Source: Verrucomicrobiia bacterium (GTDB taxonomy: Bacteria; Verrucomicrobiota; Verrucomicrobiia; Limisphaerales; UBA11358). From it: a stretch of DNA of 64,000 nt. The notes below the pieces were generated by a model that was given only the letters and a program-made list of their open reading frames with translations, had not been told where the DNA came from and did not search any database. The stretch lies in contig DATCEV010000034.1 of assembly GCA_036509895.1 (NCBI GenBank), positions 13,437-77,436 of the forward strand. Direction: 5' to 3'. Both the position numbers and the translations under genes were made by a program. Shown here in pieces: positions 9,206 through 60,034 of the stretch (position 1 is its first letter; every line of letters starts with the position of its first letter).

Positions 9206-9994
9206 TCAAGCGCGTTTTGGAGTCTTTCGATTTTGCGCCGGCATGAGCCAAGCGATAAGCGCAACGAGGATTGCCGGATAAAGCAAGCTCATCAAATTCA
9301 CCACAATAACCAAGTCCAATGATGGGCTGTTCGGATGACTTTCATATCGCAGTAAAGAATTTACCAGCAACAGAAGATAAAATGAAAAAAGCGTGGCGGA
9401 AATAAATAGAAACCGGCGGCGTGAATGGAAGAAAAATTGCGTCCATGAGAAACCTTTGTTTAACCGTCCGCGAGATAAAAGCCACGCGATTCCGAGCACT
9501 GGCAGCAAACTCAAGAAATTAAAAACCATTCTTGAGCTTGGACTGAACAACAAAGCGTAAAGATCAATATTTGATGGCAGTGGCAAATAAAACCGAACCC
9601 AATCAGGAAACGGAGAAACAGAATGATATTTATTTAGGAAATATGGCGTCGTGACAGTAGTTTGAAAAATAGCCCACGCAATTGATGAAATTCCCGACCA
9701 GAGACGAATTATGAGAAGAATTATTGCGGCCCAAAAAATTCGCTCGCGCCAGACCGTTGCTGGATTTGCTTTCACAAATTCTTCGACAAGCCGTTGCGGC
9801 TGGCCGACGCGTTTGCGCGCAAGCCAGAAAGATTCTTCGTCGTTCAAGTCGCGTTGCTGGAATCCGGCGATGGCGTCGCGCAAATGCGTTTCCAGTTCGC
9901 GCCGGTCGTCGGACGCGAGATTCGGTTGCACGGCGAGTTCGTTCCGCCAGTTTTCAACGGCGGCGTTCAGATCGAAACGGGTTTGATTTTCCAT
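9206..9994 (-). CDS. PadR-associated multi-pass membrane protein with N-terminal helical 'permease-prefix'-like domain
   Basis: ORF 9206..10027, trimmed to MENQTRFDLNAAVENWRNEL...ELETHLRDAIAGF. Several hydrophobic helices follow. The gene overlaps the end of the PadR gene. Confidence 0.6.
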   Translation of the reverse strand: MENQTRFDLNAAVENWRNELAVQPNLASDDRRELETHLRDAIAGFQQRDLNDEESFWLARKRVGQPQRLVEEFVKANPATVWRERIFWAAIILLIIRLWSGISSIAWAIFQTTVTTPYFLNKYHSVSPFPDWVRFYLPLPSNIDLYALLFSPSSRMVFNFLSLLPVLGIAWLLSRGRLNKGFSWTQFFFHSRRRFLFISATLFSFYLLLLVNSLLRYESHPNSPSLDLVIVVNLMSLLYPAILVALIAWLMPAQNRKTPKRA

Positions 9995-10364: not shown

Positions 10365-11153
10365 TCAAACTTCAAATACGGTGATTTCCGGGCGGCAATT
10401 GAAGCGGACCTCGAAGTTTTGCAGATAGCCGATGCCGGGATTGACATAAAGCGGGCCGGCCGGTGTGTGAAAAAGTCCCAGGTCATATTCATCCACGTCA
10501 AACGGCAGGCAGACCGCGCCGTAAAAGGGAATGCGCACCTGGCCGCCATGCGAATGGCCGGCGAGCATCAGATCAAATTTTCCGCCGCCGAGGTTTTTGA
10601 CCCACGCCGGATAGTGCATGAGCAGGATGTTTTTGGCCGCCGTTTTTGACGCGGGCAGCAATTGAAGCGAATGACCATAAGTGATTCCCGCGAGATTGAT
10701 TTTGCCGCCGGCAATTTCCCTTTGCTCGTTGAGCAGCCACGCGCCGCCGGTGACGGCAAAGCATTTTTGGATCGGCGCAAAGGAAACCTGGCTCCAATAA
10801 TCATGATTGCCCGGCACGCCAAACATCGGCGCGTTGATGCCGGATAAAATTTCCAATGCTTCCGGTAGAAATTTTCCGTCTTCCATGATGTCGCCGGTGA
10901 AACAGACAAAATCAGGGGTGAGCGAATTGATCCGGCGCACGACGGATTGCAAATACTCGCAGTCGCCTTTGTGATGCAAATCCGAAAAATGAACGAGGCG
11001 GCAACCCGTTTTGTCGCCGTCAAGCGGCACCTGGCGGACTTTCACCCACGTCGGCTCCAGCCAGCGCGCGTCGGCGGTCAACGCGAATGGCGTTGCGAGC
11101 AACGTGGTGGCGATGAATTTTCGGCGACTGATTTTTCTGAAATTCAAAGGCAT
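10365..11153 (-). CDS. Calcineurin-like metallophosphoesterase with Tat-like signal
   Basis: MPLNFRKISRRKFIATTLLATPFALTADA, then the motifs HFSDLHH, FTGD, GNHD, LMLAGHSHGGQ. Confidence 0.85.
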   Translation of the reverse strand: MPLNFRKISRRKFIATTLLATPFALTADARWLEPTWVKVRQVPLDGDKTGCRLVHFSDLHHKGDCEYLQSVVRRINSLTPDFVCFTGDIMEDGKFLPEALEILSGINAPMFGVPGNHDYWSQVSFAPIQKCFAVTGGAWLLNEQREIAGGKINLAGITYGHSLQLLPASKTAAKNILLMHYPAWVKNLGGGKFDLMLAGHSHGGQVRIPFYGAVCLPFDVDEYDLGLFHTPAGPLYVNPGIGYLQNFEVRFNCRPEITVFEV

Positions 11154-13065: not shown

Positions 13066-16000
13066 ATGACCAACAACCCAACACTGAAAACTAATGACCT
13101 CGGAAGCGCGCAAATTCAAATTTCCGCGCCGCCGAAACAGGGGCTTTACGACCCGCAATTCGAGCATGATGCCTGTGGCCTCGGTTTCGTCGTTCACATC
13201 AAAGGAAAAAAATCGCACCAGTTGGTCAGCGACGCGTTGAAAATTTTGGTGAACCTCGATCATCGCGGCGCGGTCGGGTGCGAACCGAACACGGGCGACG
13301 GCGCGGGCATTTTGATCCAGATCCCGCATGATTTTCTGGCTGCGCAAACGGCGAAGCTCGGTTTCAAACTTCCTGCTTTTGGCGAATACGGCGTCGGCAT
13401 GTTGTTTTTGCCAAAAGATTCCGCCGAACGCGAAGCGATCAAAAAAGAATTCGCCAAAATCGTTTCCGGCGAAGGCCAGAGCGTTCTGGGCTGGCGCGAC
13501 GTGCCGGTGGACAATTCCTCGCTCGGCAACGGCGCGAAAAATTCCGAGCCGTTCATGGCGCAGGTTTTTGTCGGCAAAAATTCTTCGCTGAAAGACGAAG
13601 CGGCCTTTGAAAGAAAACTGTTTGTCATCCGCAAGATCGCGGAGCAGAAAATCCGTTACGGCGGGAAAATTCCCGGCGGCAGATGGTTTTACGTTTCCAG
13701 CCTGTCGGCGCGCACGATCATTTACAAGGGCATGTTGATGTCCGAGCAGGTGGAAAAATATTACGCCGACCTCCGCGACGAAAGCGTGGTCACGGCGCTC
13801 GCGCTCGTGCATTCACGTTTCAGCACGAACACTTTTCCAAGCTGGGATCGCGCGCATCCAAATCGCTACATCGCGCACAACGGCGAAATCAACACGCTGC
13901 GCGGCAATGTAAATTGGATGCACGCGGCGCAGGCGAAGTTCAAATCAAAATTGTTCGGCGACGACATCAAAAAAATTGTTCCCGTCATCAACACGGACGG
14001 CAGCGACTCGGCGCAGTTCGACAATTGCGTGGAGCTTTTGACGCTGGCCGGTCGCGAATTGCCGCACGCGATGATGATGATGATTCCCGAGCCGTGGGAA
14101 AATCACGAAAGCATGGACGCCGAACGCCGCGCGTTTTACGAATTTCATTCGTGCCTGATGGAGCCGTGGGACGGCCCGGCTTCAATGGCGTTCACGGACG
14201 GAAAAATTATTGGCGCGTGCCTCGACCGAAATGGTTTGCGCCCGTCGCGTTATTATGTGACGAAAGATGATTTGGTTATCATGGCGTCGGAAGCGGGAGT
14301 TTTGCCCGTCGCGCCGGAACGCATTTTGCAGAAAGGGCGTTTGCAGCCGGGCCGGATGTTTCTCGTGGACATCGCGCAAGGGCGAATTGTCGCGGACGAA
14401 GAACTTAAGAAAAAATATGCGAGCGCGGAGCCGTATCAAAAATGGCTGGATGAACATCACGTGCTTTTGGAAAATTTGCCGGAGCCGTCGCAGGCAACGC
14501 AACCGGATCATCGCAAAATTTTGCAGCGACAACAGGCGTTCGGCTACACGTTTGAGGATTTGCGTTTGATTGTCGCGCCGATGGGCAAGGACGGCGTGCA
14601 ACCGCTTGGTTCGATGGGCACGGACACGCCGCTCGCGGTTTTGTCGAATAAGCCGCAGTTGCTTTACAATTATTTCAAACAACTGTTTGCGCAGGTGACG
14701 AATCCGCCGATTGATCCGATTCGCGAAGAAATTATTACTTCGACGGAAACGATGGTCGGCGCGCGCGGCGGTTTGCTTCAGCCGACGCCAGAAAGTTGTG
14801 CGCTGATAAAATTGAAACATCCGATTCTCACGAATGAGGAATTGGAAAAATTGCGGCACGTGGACGGCGGCGCGTTCAAATGCGTGACGCTGCCGATTTT
14901 GTTTGAGGGGAGCGCGCGCGTCTCGCGTGCAGATTCGGGCGTCGCGCCCGAATCTCTTCGTGCGCCGGACGGCGTGACCAGTGGTTTTCGGCGCGACGCC
15001 GAAAACCACACGCGGGACGCGTGTGCTCCCCAAAAAAATCTCGCAGCCGCTTTGGAAAAATTATTTTCCGAAGCGGACAAAGCCATTGCCGGCGGCGTGA
15101 ACATTTTGCTGTTGTCGGATCGCGGCATTTCGCCCGAACTCGCGCCGATTCCCGCGTTGCTCGCGGTTTCCGGTTTGCATCATCATTTGATTCGCAAAGG
15201 CACGCGCGGCAAAGTCGGCCTCGTGCTTGAATCCGGCGAACCACGCGAGGTGCATCATTTCGCGCTGCTCATCGGTTACGGTTGCAGCGCCATCAATCCG
15301 TATCTGGCGTTCGCGACGTTGGACGATTTGATTCAACAAGGTTTGCTCGTCAACACGGATCACAAAACGGCGCAGAAAAAATTCATCAAAGCCGTCGTCA
15401 AAGGCGTCGTCAAAACGATGGCCAAGATGGGCATCTCGACGATTCAAAGTTATCGCGGCGCGCAAATTTTTGAAGCCATCGGCCTCAACAGCGAAATCGT
15501 GGAAAAGTATTTTACCTGGACGCCGACGCGCATTGAAGGCGTCGGCCTCGACGTGATTGCGGAAGAAGCACTCGCGCGACATCGTCACGCGTTTCCAGAT
15601 CGTCCGGTCAATGGAGTTTTGGACGCGGGCGGCCAATATCAATGGCGCGACGGCGGCGAATTTCATTTGTTCAATCCGCAGACGATTCACAAATTACAAA
15701 ACGCGTGCCGCACGAATAACGAAAAAATTTATCGCGAGTATGCCGAGTTGATTAACAATCAGGCAAAAAATCTTTGCACGCTGCGCGGCTTGCTCGAATT
15801 CAAATTCGCGGAAAATCCCATTCCGATTGATGAAGTTGAATCCGTCGAAGAAATCGTGAAGCGTTTCAAAACCGGCGCGATGAGTTACGGTTCGATTTCC
15901 AAAGAAGCGCACGAAGCGCTGGCGATTGCGATGAATCGCATCGGCGGAAAATCCAACACCGGCGAAGGCGGCGAAGACCCGGCGCGTTACGTTCTCGAAC

Positions 16001-17820
16001 CAAACGGCGACTCGAAAAATTCCGCGATCAAACAAGTCGCGTCGGGACGTTTCGGCGTGACGAGTTATTATTTGACGCAGGCACGCGAGTTGCAAATCAA
16101 AATGGCGCAGGGCGCGAAACCCGGCGAAGGCGGAGAATTGCCCGGCAAAAAAGTTTATCCGCCGATTGCAAAAGTTCGCGGCACGACGGCGGGCGTCGGT
16201 CTGATTTCGCCGCCGCCGCATCACGACATTTATTCCATCGAAGATTTGGCGGAGTTGATTCACGATTTGAAAAATTCAAATCGCGACGCGCGCATCAGCG
16301 TAAAACTTGTGGCCGAAGTCGGCGTCGGCACCGTCGCGGCGGGCGTTGCCAAAGCGCACGCGGATGTGGTTTTGATTTCCGGTCACGACGGCGGAACCGG
16401 CGCGTCGCCGCTTTCATCCATCAAACACGCGGGCGGTCCGTGGGAATTGGGTTTGGCCGAAACGCACCAGACGCTCGTGCTGAATAATTTGCGCAGCCGC
16501 ATTTATGTCGAAGCTGACGGACAATTGAAAACTGGACGCGACGTTGCCGTCGCCGCGTTGCTCGGCGCGGAAGAATTTGGTTTTGCGACCGCGCCGCTCG
16601 TCGCGGTCGGCTGCATCATGATGCGCGTCTGCCATTTGAACACGTGTCCCGTCGGCATCGCGACGCAAGACCCGCGGTTGCGCGCGCGGTTCGCGGGCGG
16701 CGCGGACAACGTCGTGAATTTCATGCGCTTCGTCGCGGGCGAACTTCGCGAAATCATGGCTCGGCTCGGCTTCCGCAAATTGGAAGAAATGGTCGGGCGC
16801 ACGGATAAATTGATTCCGTGGCACGCGATTGAACATTGGAAAGCCAACGGACTCGACCTCACGCCGATTTTGCATCAGCCGGAAATGGGCGCGGACGTTG
16901 GACGTTTCCGTTCGCAAGATCAGGATCACGGCTTGGAAAAATCTTTGGATGTGACGAAACTTTTGGACATTTGCAAACCGGCGATTGAGCGCGGCGAAAA
17001 AGTGAAAGCCGAACTGCCGATTCGCAACGTCCATCGCGTTGTCGGCACAATCACCGGCAGCGAAATCACGAAAAAGCACGGCCCGAACGGATTGCCGGAA
17101 GACACCGTGTGGTTGAAATTCAACGGCAGCGCCGGGCAAAGTTTCGGCGCGTTCATTCCGCGCGGCATGACGCTCGAACTGGAAGGCGATGCGAACGATT
17201 ATTTCGGCAAAGGCTTGAGCGGCGGGAAAATAATTGTTTATCCGCCGCGCAATTCCACGTTCGTCGCCGAGGACAATATCATTATCGGCAACGTGGCGCT
17301 TTACGGCGCGACGGCGGGCGAAATGTTTGTATGCGGCATGGCGGGCGAACGCTTTGCTGTTCGCAATTCTGGCGTTGATGCGGTCGTCGAAGCCATCGGC
17401 GATCACGGCTGCGAATACATGACCGGCGGTCGCGTGATTGTTTTGGGAAAGACCGGACGCAATTTTGCCGCGGGCATGAGCGGCGGCATCGCGTATGTTT
17501 TGGATGAAGCCGGCGATTTCAAAAATCATTGCAACATGGAATTGGTCGGCCTCGAAAAACTTTCGGACGCGGACGAAATCGAAGAAGTCTGGAAATTGAT
17601 CCAGCGTCATCAAACTTACACGCAAAGCGAACGCGCCGCGAAAATTCTCGGCGACTGGAAAAATTTCATTCCGAAATTCATCAAAGTTTTGCCAAAAGAT
17701 TACGCGCGCGTTTTGCAATCGTTGAAAAAAGCGCAATCGCAAGGCTTGAGCGGTGACGACGCAATCATGGTCGCGTTCGAGGAAAACATCCGCGACGTCG
17801 CTCGCGTCGGCGGCGGATAA
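13066..17820 (+). CDS. gltB: Glutamate synthase large subunit (with in-frame palindromic insertion)
   Basis: A 1584-aa ORF. It has the N-terminal amidotransferase start ...HDACGLGF, an FMN/Fe-S central domain (...GEGGEDP..., ...[16 protein letters not shown]...) and the C-terminal GXGXG domain. Confidence 0.95.
14907..15031. repeat. Nested GC-rich palindromic element inside gltB (in frame)
   Basis: Outer stem ggggagcgcgcgcgtctcgcgtg / cacgcgggacgcgtgtgctcccc. Inner hairpins are gattcgggcgtcgcgcccgaatc (14932-14954) and ggttttcggcgcgacgccgaaaacc (14983-15007). Translated as [42 protein letters not shown]. Confidence 0.85.
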
Positions 17821-17822
17821 GC

Positions 17823-17968
17823 AATCCGCAGATTACGCAGATGAACGCAGATTTTCAGAAATAAACTGAACTGAATGAATTTAAGAAAATTCAAAACCGC
17901 AATTATGACCGTTGCGAAAGCAAAAAAAAAACGCCTTTAATCTGCGTTCATCTGTGAAATTTGCGGAC
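17823..17968. repeat. Long inverted repeat immediately downstream of the gltB stop (ATCTGCG-type family)
   Basis: Arms are aatccgcagattacgcagatgaacgcagatt (17823-17853) and aatctgcgttcatctgtgaaatttgcggac (17939-17968). They are about 30 bp with a few mismatches, around an 85-nt loop. Confidence 0.75.
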
Positions 17969-18412
17969 AACAATAATCGTGACCCGCAAACCTACGCCAT
18001 CATTGGCGCGGCGATGGAAGTCCATCGTCAATTGGGTCATGGTTTTCTGGAAGCGGTTTATCAGGAAGCCTTGGCAATTGAGTTGGCAGCGCGTGAAATT
18101 CGATTCCAGCGGGAAGTCCCGCTACCGGTAGAATACAAAGGTCAACGATTGTTGTGTTCGTATCGCGCTGACTTCGTTTGCTTCGACGAAGTGATTGTGG
18201 AATTAAAAGCCATCACCCAATTGACCGGCATTGATGAAGCACAAACAATCAATGAACTCAAAGCAACGAATTTGCATCGCGCGCTATTGATTAACTTTGG
18301 CGCACCAAGCTTGGAATATAAGCGTCTTGTCTTTAATCTGCGTGAATCGGCGCAATCTGCGGATGAAAATTCTGCGGATGAAATAAAAAACGTTAACCTG
18401 ATAGGAGCATAA
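17954..18412 (+). CDS. GxxExxY-family protein (PD-(D/E)XK nuclease-like fold)
   Basis: ...[51 protein letters not shown]...[15 protein letters not shown]... contains the G-x-x-E-x-x-Y motif (GFLEAVY) and a D...ELK nuclease-like core. The start is uncertain (GTG at 17954 or TTG at 17912). The C-terminal tail is repeat-derived. Confidence 0.8.
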
Positions 18413-18413
18413 C

Positions 18414-19970
18414 TTGGGCAAGCCAACCGGATTTTTAGATTTTAATCGCGAACTGCCGCTGGATCGTTCGGCTATCGAACGCATCCGCGACTGGAACGAA
18501 TTTCATCTGCACATGTCAGACGCCGACCTGAAAAAGCAGGGCGCGCGCTGCATGGATTGCGGCATTCCGTTCTGCCAGCACGGCCAGCTTGTCAGCGGCA
18601 TGGCCAGCGGCTGCCCGATTCACAATCTCATTCCCGAATGGAACGATCTGGTGTATCGCGGACTTTGGAAGGAAGCGCTCGAACGTCTTCACAAGACGAA
18701 TAATTTTCCCGAATTCACCGGGCGCGTTTGTCCCGCGCCATGCGAAGGCTCATGCGTTTTGGGAATCAACGCGCCTCCGGTCACGATCAAGAATATAGAA
18801 CAGGCCATCGCCGATCACGGCTGGGCGAACAATTGGATCGTTCCCGAAATTCCGAAAAAGCGGACGGGGAAAAAAGTCGCGGTCATCGGTTCCGGTCCCG
18901 CCGGACTTTCTGCCGCCGCGCAATTAAATCGCGCTGGCCATCTCGTCACGGTTTTCGAGCGCGCGGATCGCCCCGGCGGTTTGCTCATGTATGGCATTCC
19001 CAACATGAAGCTCGACAAAAACGAAGTTGTGCTGCGGCGAATTAAAGTGCTCGAAGCGGAAGGAATTCAATTTGTTTGCAATACGGAAGTAGTGGCACAG
19101 GCGTCTCGCCTGTGTGATAAGTCACAACAAGAAACGCCAACTCACAGGCAAGATGCCTGTGCCACTAAAAATTATCCGGCGGAAAAATTATTGAAAGAAT
19201 TTGACGCTGTGATTTTGGCGACGGGCGCGACCAAACCGCGCGATTTATCCGTTCCCGGACGCGAATTGAAAGGCATTCACTTTGCGATGGATTTTCTCAC
19301 CGCGAACACGAAAACAATTTTGGACAATCACAAAAACGGAAATTTTATTGACGCAACCGGCAAGGATGTGATCGTCATCGGCGGCGGCGATACCGGAACG
19401 GATTGCGTCGGCACTTCGATGCGGCATGGCTGCAAAAGTTTGGTGCAAGCGGAAATTTTGCCGATGCCGCCGCCTGAACGCGCGAAGGATAATCCGTGGC
19501 CCGAATGGCCGAAGGTTTATAAAATGGATTACGGTCAGGAAGAAGCCGCCGCGAAATTCGGCGCCGATCCGCGCACTTATTTGACGACCGCGACGAAATT
19601 TGAGGGCGACGCGCATGATCATGTCAAAGCCGTTCATCTCGTGCAAATCGAATGGACGCAAAACGACAAAGGCCAGTTCATTCCGAAACACGTTCCCGGA
19701 ACGGAAAAAGTTTTGCCCGCACAACTCGTTTTGCTGGCGATGGGTTTTCTCGGACCGGAACAGCCGTTGCTTGAAGCGCTCGGCATCGAACGCGACGCGC
19801 GCTCAAACGCAAAAGCCGAATTTGAAAAATACGCGACAAATCTTCCGAACGTTTTTGCCTGCGGCGATTGTCGTCGCGGCCAAAGTTTGGTCGTCTGGGC
19901 ATTCAACGAAGGTCGCGGCGCGGCGCGCGAGTGCGACCGTTTCCTCATGGGCGCAACGGATTTGCCGTGA
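18414..19970 (+). CDS. gltD: Glutamate synthase small subunit (NADPH), TTG start, with in-frame palindromic insertion
   Basis: [15 protein letters not shown]..., the Fe-S Cys motifs ([18 protein letters not shown]), and the dinucleotide folds [14 protein letters not shown] and [13 protein letters not shown]. Confidence 0.95.
19091..19166. repeat. GTGGCACAGGC-type palindromic element inside gltD (in frame)
   Basis: Outer stem agtggcacaggc / gcctgtgccact. Inner hairpins are cacaggcgtctcgcctgtg and cacaggcaagatgcctgtg. Translated as [25 protein letters not shown]. Confidence 0.85.
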
Positions 19971-55940: not shown

Positions 55941-56372
55941 ATGTTCAAAAAAATTTTAGTTGCGCTTGAAAACAGTCCGGCGGACGAAACGATGTTGCCG
56001 CAAATCGCCGCACTGGCAAAAAAACTTGCCTCGGAACTTTTATTTTTGCACGTCGCCGACGGCTGGGTCGCGCGCAATTTCAATCAACTCAAGCTTGCCG
56101 AGTCCGAAGAAATGAAAAGCGACCGCGAGTATTTGGAAAAAGCCGCCGACAAAATTCGCGCCGAAGGAATTTCAGTTTCCACCATGCTCGCGCTCGGCAG
56201 TCCGCCGACCGAAATTTTGAAAGTCGCCGATGCTGAACGGTGCAGTTTGATCGCGATGACCAGCCACGGCCATCGTTTGTTCGGCGACATTTTTCACGGC
56301 AGCACCATCAACGAAGTCCGTCACAACACGCACATTCCAATTCTCCTCGTGCGCGCGAAAAAAATAAAGTAG
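55941..56372 (+). CDS. Universal stress protein (UspA family)
   Basis: MFKKILVALENSPADE...LIAMTSHGHRLFGDIFHGSTINEVRHNTHIPILLV. Confidence 0.85.
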   Translation: MFKKILVALENSPADETMLPQIAALAKKLASELLFLHVADGWVARNFNQLKLAESEEMKSDREYLEKAADKIRAEGISVSTMLALGSPPTEILKVADAERCSLIAMTSHGHRLFGDIFHGSTINEVRHNTHIPILLVRAKKIK

Positions 56373-56431
56373 CGCAGGCATCTTGCCTGCGTTTTTATTT
56401 AAAAATTTCGCAGGCTGGATGCCTGCGCTAC
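56369..56431. terminator. Palindromic element forming two convergent terminator hairpins; it contains both flanking stop codons
   Basis: gTAGcgcaggcatcttgcctgcg-tttttatttaaaaattt-cgcaggctggatgcctgcgCTAc. Hairpin 56373-56391 plus a T-run serves usp. Hairpin 56409-56427 plus a T-run on the minus strand serves the VOC gene. Confidence 0.55.
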
Positions 56432-57572: not shown

Positions 57573-57727
57573 GGTGGCACAGGCCTCTGGCCTGTTGTTT
57601 CGGGCGTCGCGCCCGAAACCGGCGAGGCGCGAACGTCTGACTTGGCAGCACACGCAAAACCCAGCGTATGTCCTCAAACGAAATCCGGCGGGACGCCGGA
57701 TTTGACAGGCGAGACGCCTGTGCCACC
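57573..57727. repeat. Nested GTGGCACAGGC-type palindromic element between the convergent eda and GH genes
   Basis: Outer stem ggtggcacaggc / gcctgtgccacc. Inner hairpins are gtttcgggcgtcgcgcccgaaac (57597-57619), aaatccggcgggacgccggattt (57681-57703) and acaggcgagacgcctgt. Confidence 0.85.
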
Positions 57728-57730
57728 AAA

Positions 57731-60034
57731 TTAATTTCCAATCGTCACTTGCAACGGCTCATCGCGGCGTTCGGCGAAACGTTTCACATAATTTTCCCAT
57801 TGAATGTGATTCGTGAAATCGCCGCTGCGATCCCAGCACGCGCCGAAATAATATTCAAATGGCTTGCCGATTTGCGCCGGCGCAATTGCAAGTTGATCGC
57901 GAATCGGCGGATAACCTTCATGCGTCGGTTGCGGCACGTTGGCGTGAATTTTTGATTCCGGCAAATTCGGATTATCGTTCGTAAATTCTTCGACCGAATT
58001 TTTCGGCAGCACAATCGCGACCGCCGTGACGCCTTTCGGTTTATCTTCCGGCTGCCAAGAAGTCGTCCAGCCTTCGACTTTGTCGCGCGCAAAAAATTCT
58101 TCACGATTTGTCGGGCACGCGCGCTCGGCTACGCCGACACCAATCGTTAGCGGCGAATTATCTTCGCTCGCGAACGTGCTTTGCGCTTTTGTGAAATAAG
58201 AACCGGCGTCAATGCTGTAACGTTTCGTCTCGGAAACTTTTCTGCCGTTGCCCGCGTCCCACGCGTCGTAAGTCAATTCAAATTCCGAACGGATCGGCCC
58301 GGTCGTGATCAATTTCCAATTGCGATAATTGCTTGAAACAAAAAGTTTTTTGCCGTCCCAAATTCCCAAACCGCCGTCGCCGCGACTGTGCCCGACGCGA
58401 TAATCATCCATGAACGAACCGTTATCCTCGTGATAATGTTTCGTCGCATACATCGTTTGAACAATCAGGTCGTGATCTTTTTTTATCCAAACATCCGGCG
58501 CGCTGCTGATGGTTCCCTCGGCAGGGATCAGCGCAAGACCGTAAGCGCGAAACGCGATGCGGTCGCTTTCCCACGCAAAATCGTCGTAACGTTCGGGAAC
58601 AAAACGCGCAAAAGTTTTTACAATCGGCGGCGGCACGGCCAACGCGCTTGCGTCTAAAATATAAAATATTTTTGTTTCGTGCGGCGCGAAGTCCGCTTGA
58701 AAAAGAAATTTTTTGTTACTGTTTTCTTTGTAAATCTGTGAATTCAAAATGCGCGAAGAAGTCCCATTCATTACTACCAAACTTTCAAATGTGTATAAAT
58801 GCTTTATTGGTAACTTTGAAAAATCGGCTGAACTTAATTCAATGGTTTCACTGGCACGGTAAAATTTTGCTGTGTTTGTAATCTTGAACACAAATCGTTG
58901 TGGATTATTTTCAAAGGCAGCCATCCGATAAACTTCACTTCCCGCGAGCAAAAAAATGCCGCCGCCGTATGGTTGAGTTGAGTCCGCATCAAATTTTATC
59001 GGACGATCGCCGGCGGGTTGAATGTGCGTCAGTTTGCCGTCTGCGTTCACGCACGCGACGAGCGCCGGCCACGCTTTGCGCACCGCCGGTTCAAATTTCG
59101 CGCGGTCGAGCAAACCCTGATTTACGCCCCACGCGAGGCCGTAAGTGAACAGTCCGGAACCGCTGGCTTCGGACATCGGAAAATTTTCCGGGTCGAGCAA
59201 ACTCGCGCTCCACATTCCGTCCGGCTGCTGGCACGACAAAATTTTTTCCGCCATGTCCTTGAATAATTTTTCAAAACGCGGACGTTCGGGATGATTCATC
59301 GGCAAGTATTGCAGGCAACGGACAATTCCGGCAAAAACCCAGCCGTTGCCGCGACTCCAAAAAACTTTTTTTCCGTTCGCCTCGCGTTTGTCAAAAAAAG
59401 TGCTGTCGCGAAAAAATAAATGTTCGTTCGTGTCGTAAAGATAATCCGTCGTGCGCCAAAAATTTGTGAGCGCAAAATTCATATAGCGCTCGTCGCCAGT
59501 TGCCGCAGTTAATCGTAACCACGCGCCTGGAGCCATGAACAGCGCGTCGCACCACGACCACAATTCCTGACCGTGTCCCGGTTGCGAAAAATCGAGACTC
59601 TTCGTCGCGGGCGGATGCGCCAAAATCCAGTCGAAGCGTTCGCGCATCGGCGCAATCATATAATTTTCGCGATAGAGAAAATAAAGTTCCGTCCAAACCT
59701 GACCGATGCATTCGTCGTCCGCGTGATACATGCGCCCGCGATAAGCCGGAAGTTCCCAGTGATTTGTGTCGCCTTGCGCGCGCATCGCGTCACGATATTT
59801 TGCGTCGCCGGAAATTCCCGCGAGCGCCATCATGCCCACGTCGCCGACGGCTTGAATCCAGCCGGTCGTGCGATTGGTCGCCGGATTTGCGAGTTGCCAA
59901 TCGCCGACGCGCTGCATGATTGTCAAAATAGTTTGCGGCGTGAAATCGGAATTGGTTTGCGCGCGCGCAGAAAAATTTACGGCGAAAAAAATAATTGAGG
60001 AAAAAATAAACGGGCGGAAAAAATAATTTTTCAT
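57731..60034 (-). CDS. Secreted GH88/GH105-like unsaturated uronyl hydrolase domain fused to a DUF4861-like C-terminal domain
   Basis: A signal peptide. The N-terminal (alpha/alpha)6-type motifs are ...YHADDECIGQ..., WSWCDALFMAP and WSRGNGWVFAG. The C-terminal FVPERYDDFAWESDRIAFRAYG is typical of DUF4861, from memory. Confidence 0.7.
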   Translation of the reverse strand: MKNYFFRPFIFSSIIFFAVNFSARAQTNSDFTPQTILTIMQRVGDWQLANPATNRTTGWIQAVGDVGMMALAGISGDAKYRDAMRAQGDTNHWELPAYRGRMYHADDECIGQVWTELYFLYRENYMIAPMRERFDWILAHPPATKSLDFSQPGHGQELWSWCDALFMAPGAWLRLTAATGDERYMNFALTNFWRTTDYLYDTNEHLFFRDSTFFDKREANGKKVFWSRGNGWVFAGIVRCLQYLPMNHPERPRFEKLFKDMAEKILSCQQPDGMWSASLLDPENFPMSEASGSGLFTYGLAWGVNQGLLDRAKFEPAVRKAWPALVACVNADGKLTHIQPAGDRPIKFDADSTQPYGGGIFLLAGSEVYRMAAFENNPQRFVFKITNTAKFYRASETIELSSADFSKLPIKHLYTFESLVVMNGTSSRILNSQIYKENSNKKFLFQADFAPHETKIFYILDASALAVPPPIVKTFARFVPERYDDFAWESDRIAFRAYGLALIPAEGTISSAPDVWIKKDHDLIVQTMYATKHYHEDNGSFMDDYRVGHSRGDGGLGIWDGKKLFVSSNYRNWKLITTGPIRSEFELTYDAWDAGNGRKVSETKRYSIDAGSYFTKAQSTFASEDNSPLTIGVGVAERACPTNREEFFARDKVEGWTTSWQPEDKPKGVTAVAIVLPKNSVEEFTNDNPNLPESKIHANVPQPTHEGYPPIRDQLAIAPAQIGKPFEYYFGACWDRSGDFTNHIQWENYVKRFAERRDEPLQVTIGN

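Follow-up and report, generated by a model that had tools for sequence, protein, structure and literature searches.

The stretch of DNA considered here, referred to as the window, comprises 64,000 nucleotides (64 kb) of a contig from a Verrucomicrobiia bacterium. It carries on its forward strand, at 18414-19970, the gene gltD for the small (beta) subunit of glutamate synthase (GOGAT), and within gltD lies a palindromic element of 74 nt made of two inverted units of the repetitive extragenic palindromic (REP) type. The gene is an intact open reading frame (ORF) of 518 aa, identified from the ORF list, TIGR01317 and PDB. Its product reaches 774 bits on TIGR01317, the model of the GOGAT small subunit, against a cut-off of 447.7, and is matched to PDB 7mfm_I with E = 1.8e-193. 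The region 19089-19167 reads gTA-GTGGCACAGGCGTCTCGCCTGTG-(28 nt)-CACAGGCAAGATGCCTGTGCCAC-TAa and forms a perfect outer stem that encloses two small hairpins. Read in the frame of the host gene, the element gives 25 residues (227-251) placed between ...FVCNTEV and KNYPAEKLL. A first-pass annotation of the window had described this palindrome at 19091-19166, and its stem, inner hairpins and in-frame reading were all recovered. The outer stem was indeed perfect, but the inverted arms exceed the 12 bp assigned to it: they measure 25 nt each (19090-19114 and 19143-19167), are 92% complementary and stand 28 nt apart.

Structurally, the element begins with a GTAG head (19089-19092, + strand, as are the parts that follow), read directly from the sequence. 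It lies immediately 5′ of the left REP unit, overlaps the GTGG head of that unit (19092-19095) and gives Val226 (gta). The left unit, GTGG-CACAGGC-gtctc-GCCTGTG, occupies 19092-19114 and is free of stop codons in all three forward frames. An A-rich spacer of 28 nt (19115-19142) separates the two units and encodes residues 235-243, DKSQQETPT. The right unit is inverted, CACAGGC-aagat-GCCTGTG-CCAC (19143-19165), and was recognized from both the motif and the inverted-repeat matches. The 3′ junction, TAAAAAT (19166-19172), was defined by the comparison of alleles. Each of the two inverted units is 23 nt long and consists of a head followed by a hairpin with 7-8 bp in the stem and 3-5 nt in the loop.

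The sequence of the unit is far from what composition alone would yield. In the window, the 11-mer GTGGCACAGGC occurs exactly at 19092-19102 (+), 19155-19165 (-), 57574-57584 (+) and 57716-57726 (-). When up to one mismatch is allowed, 5 matches are obtained against 0.62 expected, a number reached by none of 100 shuffles. The palindrome CACAGGC-N5-GCCTGTG has two exact copies, 19096-19114 and 19143-19161, and copies with 1 mismatch lie at each end of an element near 57.6 kb, against 0.01 expected. As RNA, the gltD element folds at -45.7 kcal/mol (z = -8.5; 0 of 200 shuffles equal this value), and as DNA at -25.1 kcal/mol (z = -7.6). The minimum free energy structure is a single long hairpin of 17+7 bp.

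The 25 residues had been proposed to be an insertion and not conserved GltD sequence, and the orthologue alignment bears this out with one correction: they stand in place of one Gly, so that 24 aa (72 nt) are added on balance (518 versus 494 aa in most orthologues). The comparison set consisted of the 120 nearest GltD protein clusters, all from Verrucomicrobia (the named ones being metagenome-assembled genomes, MAGs, of Limisphaerales/Verrucomicrobiae), with 76-91% identity. The site reads NTEV-GKN-YPAE in 88 of the 120 clusters, and a further 17, unparsed by the pattern, are all 494 aa long. At the DNA level, the empty site is gaa gtc GGN AAA AAT tat. The alignments to PDB structures (7mfm_I and 6s6s_G) are interrupted precisely at query residues 227/255. 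A scan of genome contigs for orthologues gave, among the matches listed, empty sites in every case, at no more than 86% identity and mostly with 494 aa; those of other lengths among the matches listed are off by 1-4 aa, and one locus, L037, by an insert behind its stop codon. A protein search with the insert and its flanks retrieved 15 gene fragments, of which 1 is occupied (P0133). The GAVKAG of another cluster, P0062, was considered as an excision footprint and rejected, its DNA GGTGCCGTCAAGGCGGGA being without a recognisable trace.

An independent Logan contig from a peat-metagenome run is identical to 18998-19565, with 0 differences, and the element is therefore not an assembly artefact. 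The same peat run also yielded a second contig, of about 87% identity, in which the site is empty (gaagtCGGGaaaaat; gaagt-CGGG-aaaaat). It could be supposed that the 25 residues are absent from the mature protein, either by removal from the mRNA or by ribosome bypassing of a mobile GC-rich insert, or that the gene is a pseudogene or the locus misassembled. Strong hairpins in coding regions do accompany translational bypassing in other systems. Against this, the DNA of all 12 occupied alleles (the window and 11 fetched) is in frame and stop-free, a count subject to ascertainment bias as the alleles were found via full-length proteins. The REP units carry no stop codon in any forward frame. The whole element is stop-free in just 1 of 6 combinations of frame and orientation, and it is the one used by gltD; this is also the outcome expected from a survival filter acting on random insertions. 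Occupied alleles compared with one another give, over the gltD flanks, a dN/dS of 0.07-0.14, with 0.067 at dS 0.48 for the window against its occupied sister L082; by this measure, gltD is under purifying selection and still functional. Moreover, the published precedents in Opitutus terrae and Rickettsia are read as translated inserts. A product lacking the insert, a dead gene or an artefact is in our view extremely unlikely. That insert lengths are all multiples of three was rejected as evidence of selection, since the argument is circular for alleles that were found as intact proteins.

Transcription and translation of the insert, with a disordered loop at the protein surface as the product, are probable in view of the integrity of the ORF and the purifying selection. 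AlphaFold runs of GltD were made with 30 and 120 close homologues. In the better model, strands at 224-227 (NTEV) and 252-255 (KNYP) flank a coil with pLDDT < 50. From this local secondary structure and the break in the PDB alignments, the insert may lengthen, at its tip, a beta-hairpin that belongs to the FAD-domain region and lies upstream of the DAVILATGA strand, a placement of low confidence. The site had been described as a short loop preceding the second dinucleotide-binding segment. The short loop, between the NTEV strand and the KNYPAEKLL strand/helix, stands; the second part is loose, as the second nucleotide-binding motif, GGGDTG, is found about 70 residues beyond the insertion site.

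The identity of the unit can be traced through the peptides it encodes. A G-variant of the unit, GTGGCACGGGCGTCCCGCCCGTG, reads in its three frames VARASRP, WHGRPAR and GTGVPPV, and the inverted unit reads HGRDARA(T) and TGETPVP. VARASRP, WHGRPAR, GTGVPPV and HGRDARAT are listed for the intragenic GTAG-19 REPs of O. terrae (Di Nocera et al. 2013, Additional file 3, PMC3733652). The window unit would be the A-variant of this GTAG-19 family (CACAGGC for CACGGGC), a match of peptide against peptide and not of DNA. It is a compensated A/T variant, as both halves of the stem have changed together (CACAGGC/GCCTGTG). The heads agree with this assignment: GT(A/G)G heads define the GTAG-type REPs (PMC3733652; PMC3479197), and GTAG is mutated to GTGG in one O. 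terrae family (PMC3733652). In E. coli, the GTAG head acts in binding and cleavage by the REP-associated tyrosine transposase (RAYT) (PMC3479197). The gltD element is accordingly regarded as a dimer of inverted GT(A/G)G-headed REP units, similar to a REPIN. To the whole explanation, including mobilisation by a RAYT and a tolerated insertion in a loop, we assign a probability of about four in five.

The family is widespread. The pattern GTGGCACRGGC-N5-GCCYGTG was found in public metagenomes in at least 120 stretches; all 167 pattern matches have the GTGG head, but the pattern itself demanded GTGG. Among the matches listed, the other compared loci and the window, 61 distinct dimers were counted. 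Their partner hairpins are diverse yet always have self-complementary stems, such as CACGCGC, CATGGGC, CACGGCC, CACTGGC and CACGTGC, and the dimer spacers in metagenome loci are mostly 3-4 nt. As for copies inside genes, of 133 element regions among the listed metagenome loci, 36 lie in long stop-free frames, an upper bound given that the DNA is GC-rich. Pfam comparison identified seven real host proteins in which a REP peptide lies within or between recognised domains. They are AlaRS (alaS; L149 8532-8580), AspRS (aspS; L169 2232-2254), MetH with three tandem units (L200 4420-4514), Mfd (L156 2615-2663), a BcrAD/BadFG-type activase (CoA-enzyme activase; L168), a molybdopterin oxidoreductase (L151) and a Type ISP restriction enzyme (L173). 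The copies in alaS, aspS, metH and mfd are on unrelated metagenome contigs. The window itself holds two copies of the gltD-element type, one sister-type dimer and one composite in gltB, and 2 of these 4 are inside genes. In two genomes, the A or G variant found in gltD is that of the other REP copy from the same genome (window 57574; L081 15759). As a separate observation, the word depth of contigs is several-fold higher over 19072-19164 in the peat/soil metagenome runs X1 and X4 (197 versus about 30 in X4), which indicates that the unit is repeated in those communities.

Two loci connect the family with a transposase of the IS200-like tyrosine class. In L195 and L101, an ORF that matches Y1_Tnp (PF01797, IS200-like) above the gathering score has GTGG/GTAG-CACAGG REP units on either side. 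In L195, the Y1 ORF lies at 387-908 on the minus strand, with REPs at 359-381, 845-869 and 1068-1092. In L101, its limits are about 9850 and 10443; REP units are found at 9733-9757 and 10403-10552 and alternate with a second hairpin type, GCGCAGCCAggtTGGCTGCGCTAC. Both proteins score 26-35 bits on PF01797, and the motif basis consists only of HUH...Y..NP.RAGL, an assignment to RAYTs that is not motif-specific. The layout of the two loci is 'REPtron'-like.

The arms and flanks of the gltD element could also be read as those of a MITE (miniature transposable element with inverted repeats) derived from an insertion sequence (IS) of the IS630/Tc1-mariner type, in which a DDE transposase would act on 25-nt terminal repeats, with insertion at TA and its duplication. 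The arms are indeed inverted repeats of 25 nt, and TA stands at both flanks in the window copy, in L139 and in one copy of L186. A Gly-Lys pair written GGT-AAA would create a TA target, and it is present in 3 of 43 empty orthologues. In addition, gltD of L087 has an IS630-family DDE_3 gene at a distance of about 3 kb. This last association does not extend to the repeats, as the strict REP pattern occurs once in L087, at the gltD insert, and no matching terminal repeat was found at the DDE_3 gene. A TA target-site duplication was modelled and did not generalise over the dimers: TA is on both sides in just 3 of 68. Target-site duplication was not found among these 68 dimers, in which 2-nt flank repeats number 7 against 4.25 expected, 3-nt repeats 1 against 1.06 and 4-nt repeats 0. 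In many copies, GTA/TAC is read as prolonging the inverted repeat (GTAGTGGCAC/GTGCCACTAC) and not as a duplication. The GT(A/G)G head, the position of the family beside Y1 transposase genes and the match to a published REP family also argue against a MITE, and we hold this origin to be very unlikely. REP characters displayed by the gltD element are a short palindrome, a GT(A/G)G foot and an inverted pair within one hairpin; for its family, the absence of target-site duplication over the 68 dimers is another. L087 (2034-5683) has an occupied gltD in which most of the left REP unit has been lost, and genes for ISL3-family and IS630-family (DDE_3) transposases follow within 0.4-4 kb downstream.

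The same codon of gltD is occupied in other lineages. Inserts at exactly the same position were found in 12 of the 120 nearest clusters, the window's own cluster included. Nine alleles, the window among them, have the same REP type in its A or G variant; L087 belongs to these, with its left unit mostly gone. L090 and L091 contain a diverged REP version, GTGG(A/C)GCAGGC. In L082, the nearest relative of the window (95% aa identity outside the site), the insert is a different REP dimer (GGGAGCGCGACCGTCCCGGTCGC...) followed by a relic, ACTACAATT, of the first type. At its 3′ side the junction does not vary: 7 nt separate the end of the element from TAT (Tyr) in 9 of 9 alleles of the same type, and 4 nt do so in L090 and L091. 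Several forms occur at the 5′ junction, gtc-GGC-GGY-GTA|, gaa-GTA|, acc-ATA| and gaa|, which are interconvertible by in-frame deletions. The spacers of the orthologous inserts start with YGAWGA and end with AACT. Occupied alleles are dispersed over the GltD tree, and 9 of the 12 have an empty allele as their nearest neighbour in no fewer than 91% of the bootstrap replicates. Between L083 and L084, the elements match at 64 of 65 positions at a gene dS of 0.74.

Two histories fit these data. In the first, the site is a preferred and tolerated one that has received repeated independent insertions, as suggested by the patchy occupancy over the tree and by near-identical elements in distant hosts. 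In the second, an old occupied slot has been kept, trimmed and overwritten by the active REP type of each lineage, with loss or recombination producing the patchiness. In favor of this latter history are the constant 3′ junction, an N-to-I change shared by six alleles beside the insert and the relic in L082; the REPORTH preprint also reports that, where slots are conserved, REPINs 'may be overwritten'. In the most far-reaching reading, the Gly codon of the NTEV-G-KNYP hairpin might be, within an essential metabolic gene, a true integration hot spot or a long-lived 'REPIN slot', hit again or overwritten by successive REP types across Verrucomicrobia lineages. This idea is tentative and, on balance, rather doubtful. 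If it were correct, the Y1 transposase would be guided to its target by sequence or structure, and the mRNA hairpin or the loop might be under selection in both GOGAT subunits.

A useful insert would account for the occupation of one codon in many lineages and for inserts in both subunits. It could be retained as an mRNA hairpin which tunes the expression or decay of gltD (its duplex of about 25 bp being in the size range of an RNase III-like substrate), or as a loop which modulates the assembly or regulation of GOGAT. Consistent with this are the inserts that 12 of 120 clusters, spread over the tree, have at one codon, the very stable fold, the similarity of the L083 and L084 elements despite the divergence of their genes, and the fact that gltB is also occupied in both the window and L082. 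Base pairing, moreover, is maintained through compensatory changes. Covariation was evaluated on 8 distinct arm pairs, their source being 9 alleles picked for the orthology of their proteins; the 61 dimers were left out, since they had been selected for pairing. Paired cells make up 97.7% in the local hairpins, where 8 of 16 pairs show changes on both sides, and 98.6% in the long hairpin. None of 500 shuffles matches the observed percentage of pairing or the covariation score, for either the local or the long hairpin. However, pairing is conserved in every REP copy whatever its location and hence need not signal a role specific to gltD. Most close relatives are empty, including a population in the same sample, and the same units occur in many unrelated genes. 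The peptide is not conserved either: it contains 0-2 Cys, is 13-39 residues long and differs altogether in sequence in the sister lineage. Retention of the insert for a function is judged unlikely, and, given the purifying selection on gltD, it is most likely a tolerated and translated passenger rather than an adaptation.

The preferred explanation can be formulated as a sequence of steps. The REP dimer would be a non-autonomous mobile element, moved as a single-stranded hairpin by a single-copy IS200-like tyrosine (HUH/Y1) transposase, the RAYT, without duplication of the target. One copy would have entered gltD where a Gly codon specifies the tip of a beta-hairpin loop. It would have survived because it is stop-free in the orientation and frame used, because its net 72 nt after trimming of the junctions is a multiple of three, and because the loop would tolerate 24 residues. 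The slot would either have been hit repeatedly, or long occupied and overwritten by the active REP type of each lineage.

Some observations weigh against this explanation. A TA stands at either flank of the gltD element (gTA|...|TAa), which is also the pattern of a MITE of the Tc1/IS630 type. A plain insertion of 74 nt breaks the reading frame, and each allele needs a junction change of +5, -4 or -7 nt (under the GG|TA|AA model), so that the history of the insertion is not a single clean event. No RAYT/Y1 transposase ORF was found in the 64-kb window, and mobilisation in the source genome is therefore argued from other loci. The contigs of two RNA runs (about 4% shared words) have no coverage of 19088-19231. 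Both AlphaFold models are poor overall (mean pLDDT 42 and 46). Finally, a selected role of the -45.7 kcal/mol mRNA hairpin or of the loop is conceivable, if unlikely.

Other palindromic elements of the window are related to the one in gltD. An intergenic composite at 57573-57727 (no strand assigned) contains the same outer REP units (GGTGGCACAGGCctctgGCCTGTT ... GACAGGCgagacGCCTGTGCCACC) with two further inner hairpins, and it lies 4 nt past the stop-codon end of the minus-strand ORF 57731-60034. The first-pass annotation had claimed that the outer stem of the gltD palindrome also bounds this element, and GTGGCACAGGC is in fact matched at both of its ends. A sister-type REP dimer occupies the intergenic stretch 56369-56431 (likewise unstranded), GTAG-CGCAGGC-atctt-GCCTGCG ... 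CGCAGGC-tggat-GCCTGCG-CTAC (GTAGCGCAGGCatcttGCCTGCG ... CGCAGGCtggatGCCTGCGCTAC), with complete GTAG...CTAC ends. Its spacer is AT-rich and TTT follows it; the dimer may double as a terminator.

The gene for the GOGAT large subunit, gltB (13066-17820), has a composite palindromic insert of another REP type with GGGGAGCGCG... ends at 14907-15031 on the plus strand. Its outer ends are GGGGAGCGCGCGCG.../...GTGTGCTCCCC and enclose two inner hairpins. The earlier proposal of a palindromic insert in gltB was likewise upheld: about 42 extra residues follow PILFE and are missing in 9 of 10 compared orthologues. In L082 (2885-3030), the same site contains an insert with the same ends and a different interior. 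Both GOGAT subunits are decorated with inserts in the lineage of the window. A hairpin of 19 nt, TTCGGGC-gtcgc-GCCCGAA, is identical at 57599-57617, in the intergenic composite, and at 14934-14952, in the gltB insert, and the composites consequently appear to be built from common modules.

The surroundings of gltD are variable as well. The small gene in the gap between gltB and gltD differs by relative: in the window it is a GxxExxY gene (17912-18412), and in relatives the gap contains genes for Asp_protease_2, UPF0150, Uma2 nuclease-like proteins (twice) and PDDEXK_3 (twice). The loci concerned are L081 9511-9999, L082 5842-6114, L085 863-1456, L089 8221-8793, L088 1119-1532 and L212 9736-9999, whereas in L083, L086 and L090 the gap is empty of genes. 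It looks like a variable cargo slot within the GOGAT operon. In L037 (1658-3888), from a Verrucomicrobiaceae MAG, about 750 nt with an HNH-endonuclease-like ORF follow directly after the gltD stop codon, and then comes a second copy of the last ~19 gltD codons. The arrangement resembles a mobile insertion, with a duplicated target, in the 3′ end of the gene.

Taken as a translated REP dimer of a published Verrucomicrobia family, the gltD element represents a kind of insert which, with its in-frame habit there, has been known since 2013 (PMC3733652), and it does not indicate a new molecular mechanism. It is a documented case in which selfish palindromic DNA has become part of a core metabolic enzyme. 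The 2013 observation in Opitutus is extended to uncultured peat and soil Verrucomicrobia and to metagenomic genes for tRNA synthetases, methionine synthase and repair. For annotation, it explains odd Cys/Arg/Thr-rich or Gly/Pro-rich peptides in the Planctomycetes-Verrucomicrobia-Chlamydiae (PVC) group, such as VA(Q/R)ASR, HG(Q/R)DARAT, GTGVSPV and WHGRPAR. The recurrent occupancy of one codon is the sole part that goes beyond the literature consulted, and it provides a natural system for the study of REP/RAYT target preference and of the persistence of slots.

Among known systems, the closest is the GTAG-19 family of O. terrae (PMC3733652). It belongs to the same phylum, has the same unit as judged by peptides and the same GTGG/GTAG head, and also forms in-frame inverted dimers in housekeeping genes. 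Over half of the inserts described there are dimers, and these dimers encode 20-30 aa (PMC3733652). The window copy differs in being the A-variant, giving VAQASRL...HRQDACAT, and its spacer is 28 nt long versus 3-4 nt in most dimers. Glutamate synthase is not in the list of host genes of PMC3733652. Furthermore, one codon is occupied here in many lineages, whereas in that paper occupancy of the same site by REPs concerns Xanthomonas recB alone.

The REPIN-RAYT system (Bertels and Rainey 2011, PMC3116915; TnpA-REP, PMC3479197) shares with the gltD element and its family the inverted REP pair forming a long hairpin, the GTAG-like 5′ head and the lack of target duplication. At the level of the family, Y1 genes flanked by the same REPs (L195, L101) and an apparently overwritten slot (window versus L082) are further points of agreement. 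Conversely, classical REPINs are described as extragenic, whereas the gltD element lies in a translated frame, with no RAYT in the window. Intragenic bacterial MITEs such as ERIC and the Coxiella QMITE (PMC10969869, PMC5896051) are also small, non-autonomous palindromes for which in-frame fusions are possible. However, MITEs have IS-derived terminal repeats and target-site duplications, and the REP family described here lacks duplication in the 68 dimers. The Rickettsia palindromic elements (RPEs; Ogata et al. 2000/2002, as reviewed in PMC10969869) are mobile palindromes found in frame in many unrelated metabolic genes, at positions judged compatible with fold and function. They measure about 100-150 bp and are part of the CGTC-tagged class (PMC3733652), reside in reduced intracellular genomes and have no sequence relationship to the family described here. 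The gltD element, with its head GT(A/G)G instead of CGTC and its 74 nt, was not assigned to the RPEs; what the two have in common is their in-frame behavior alone.

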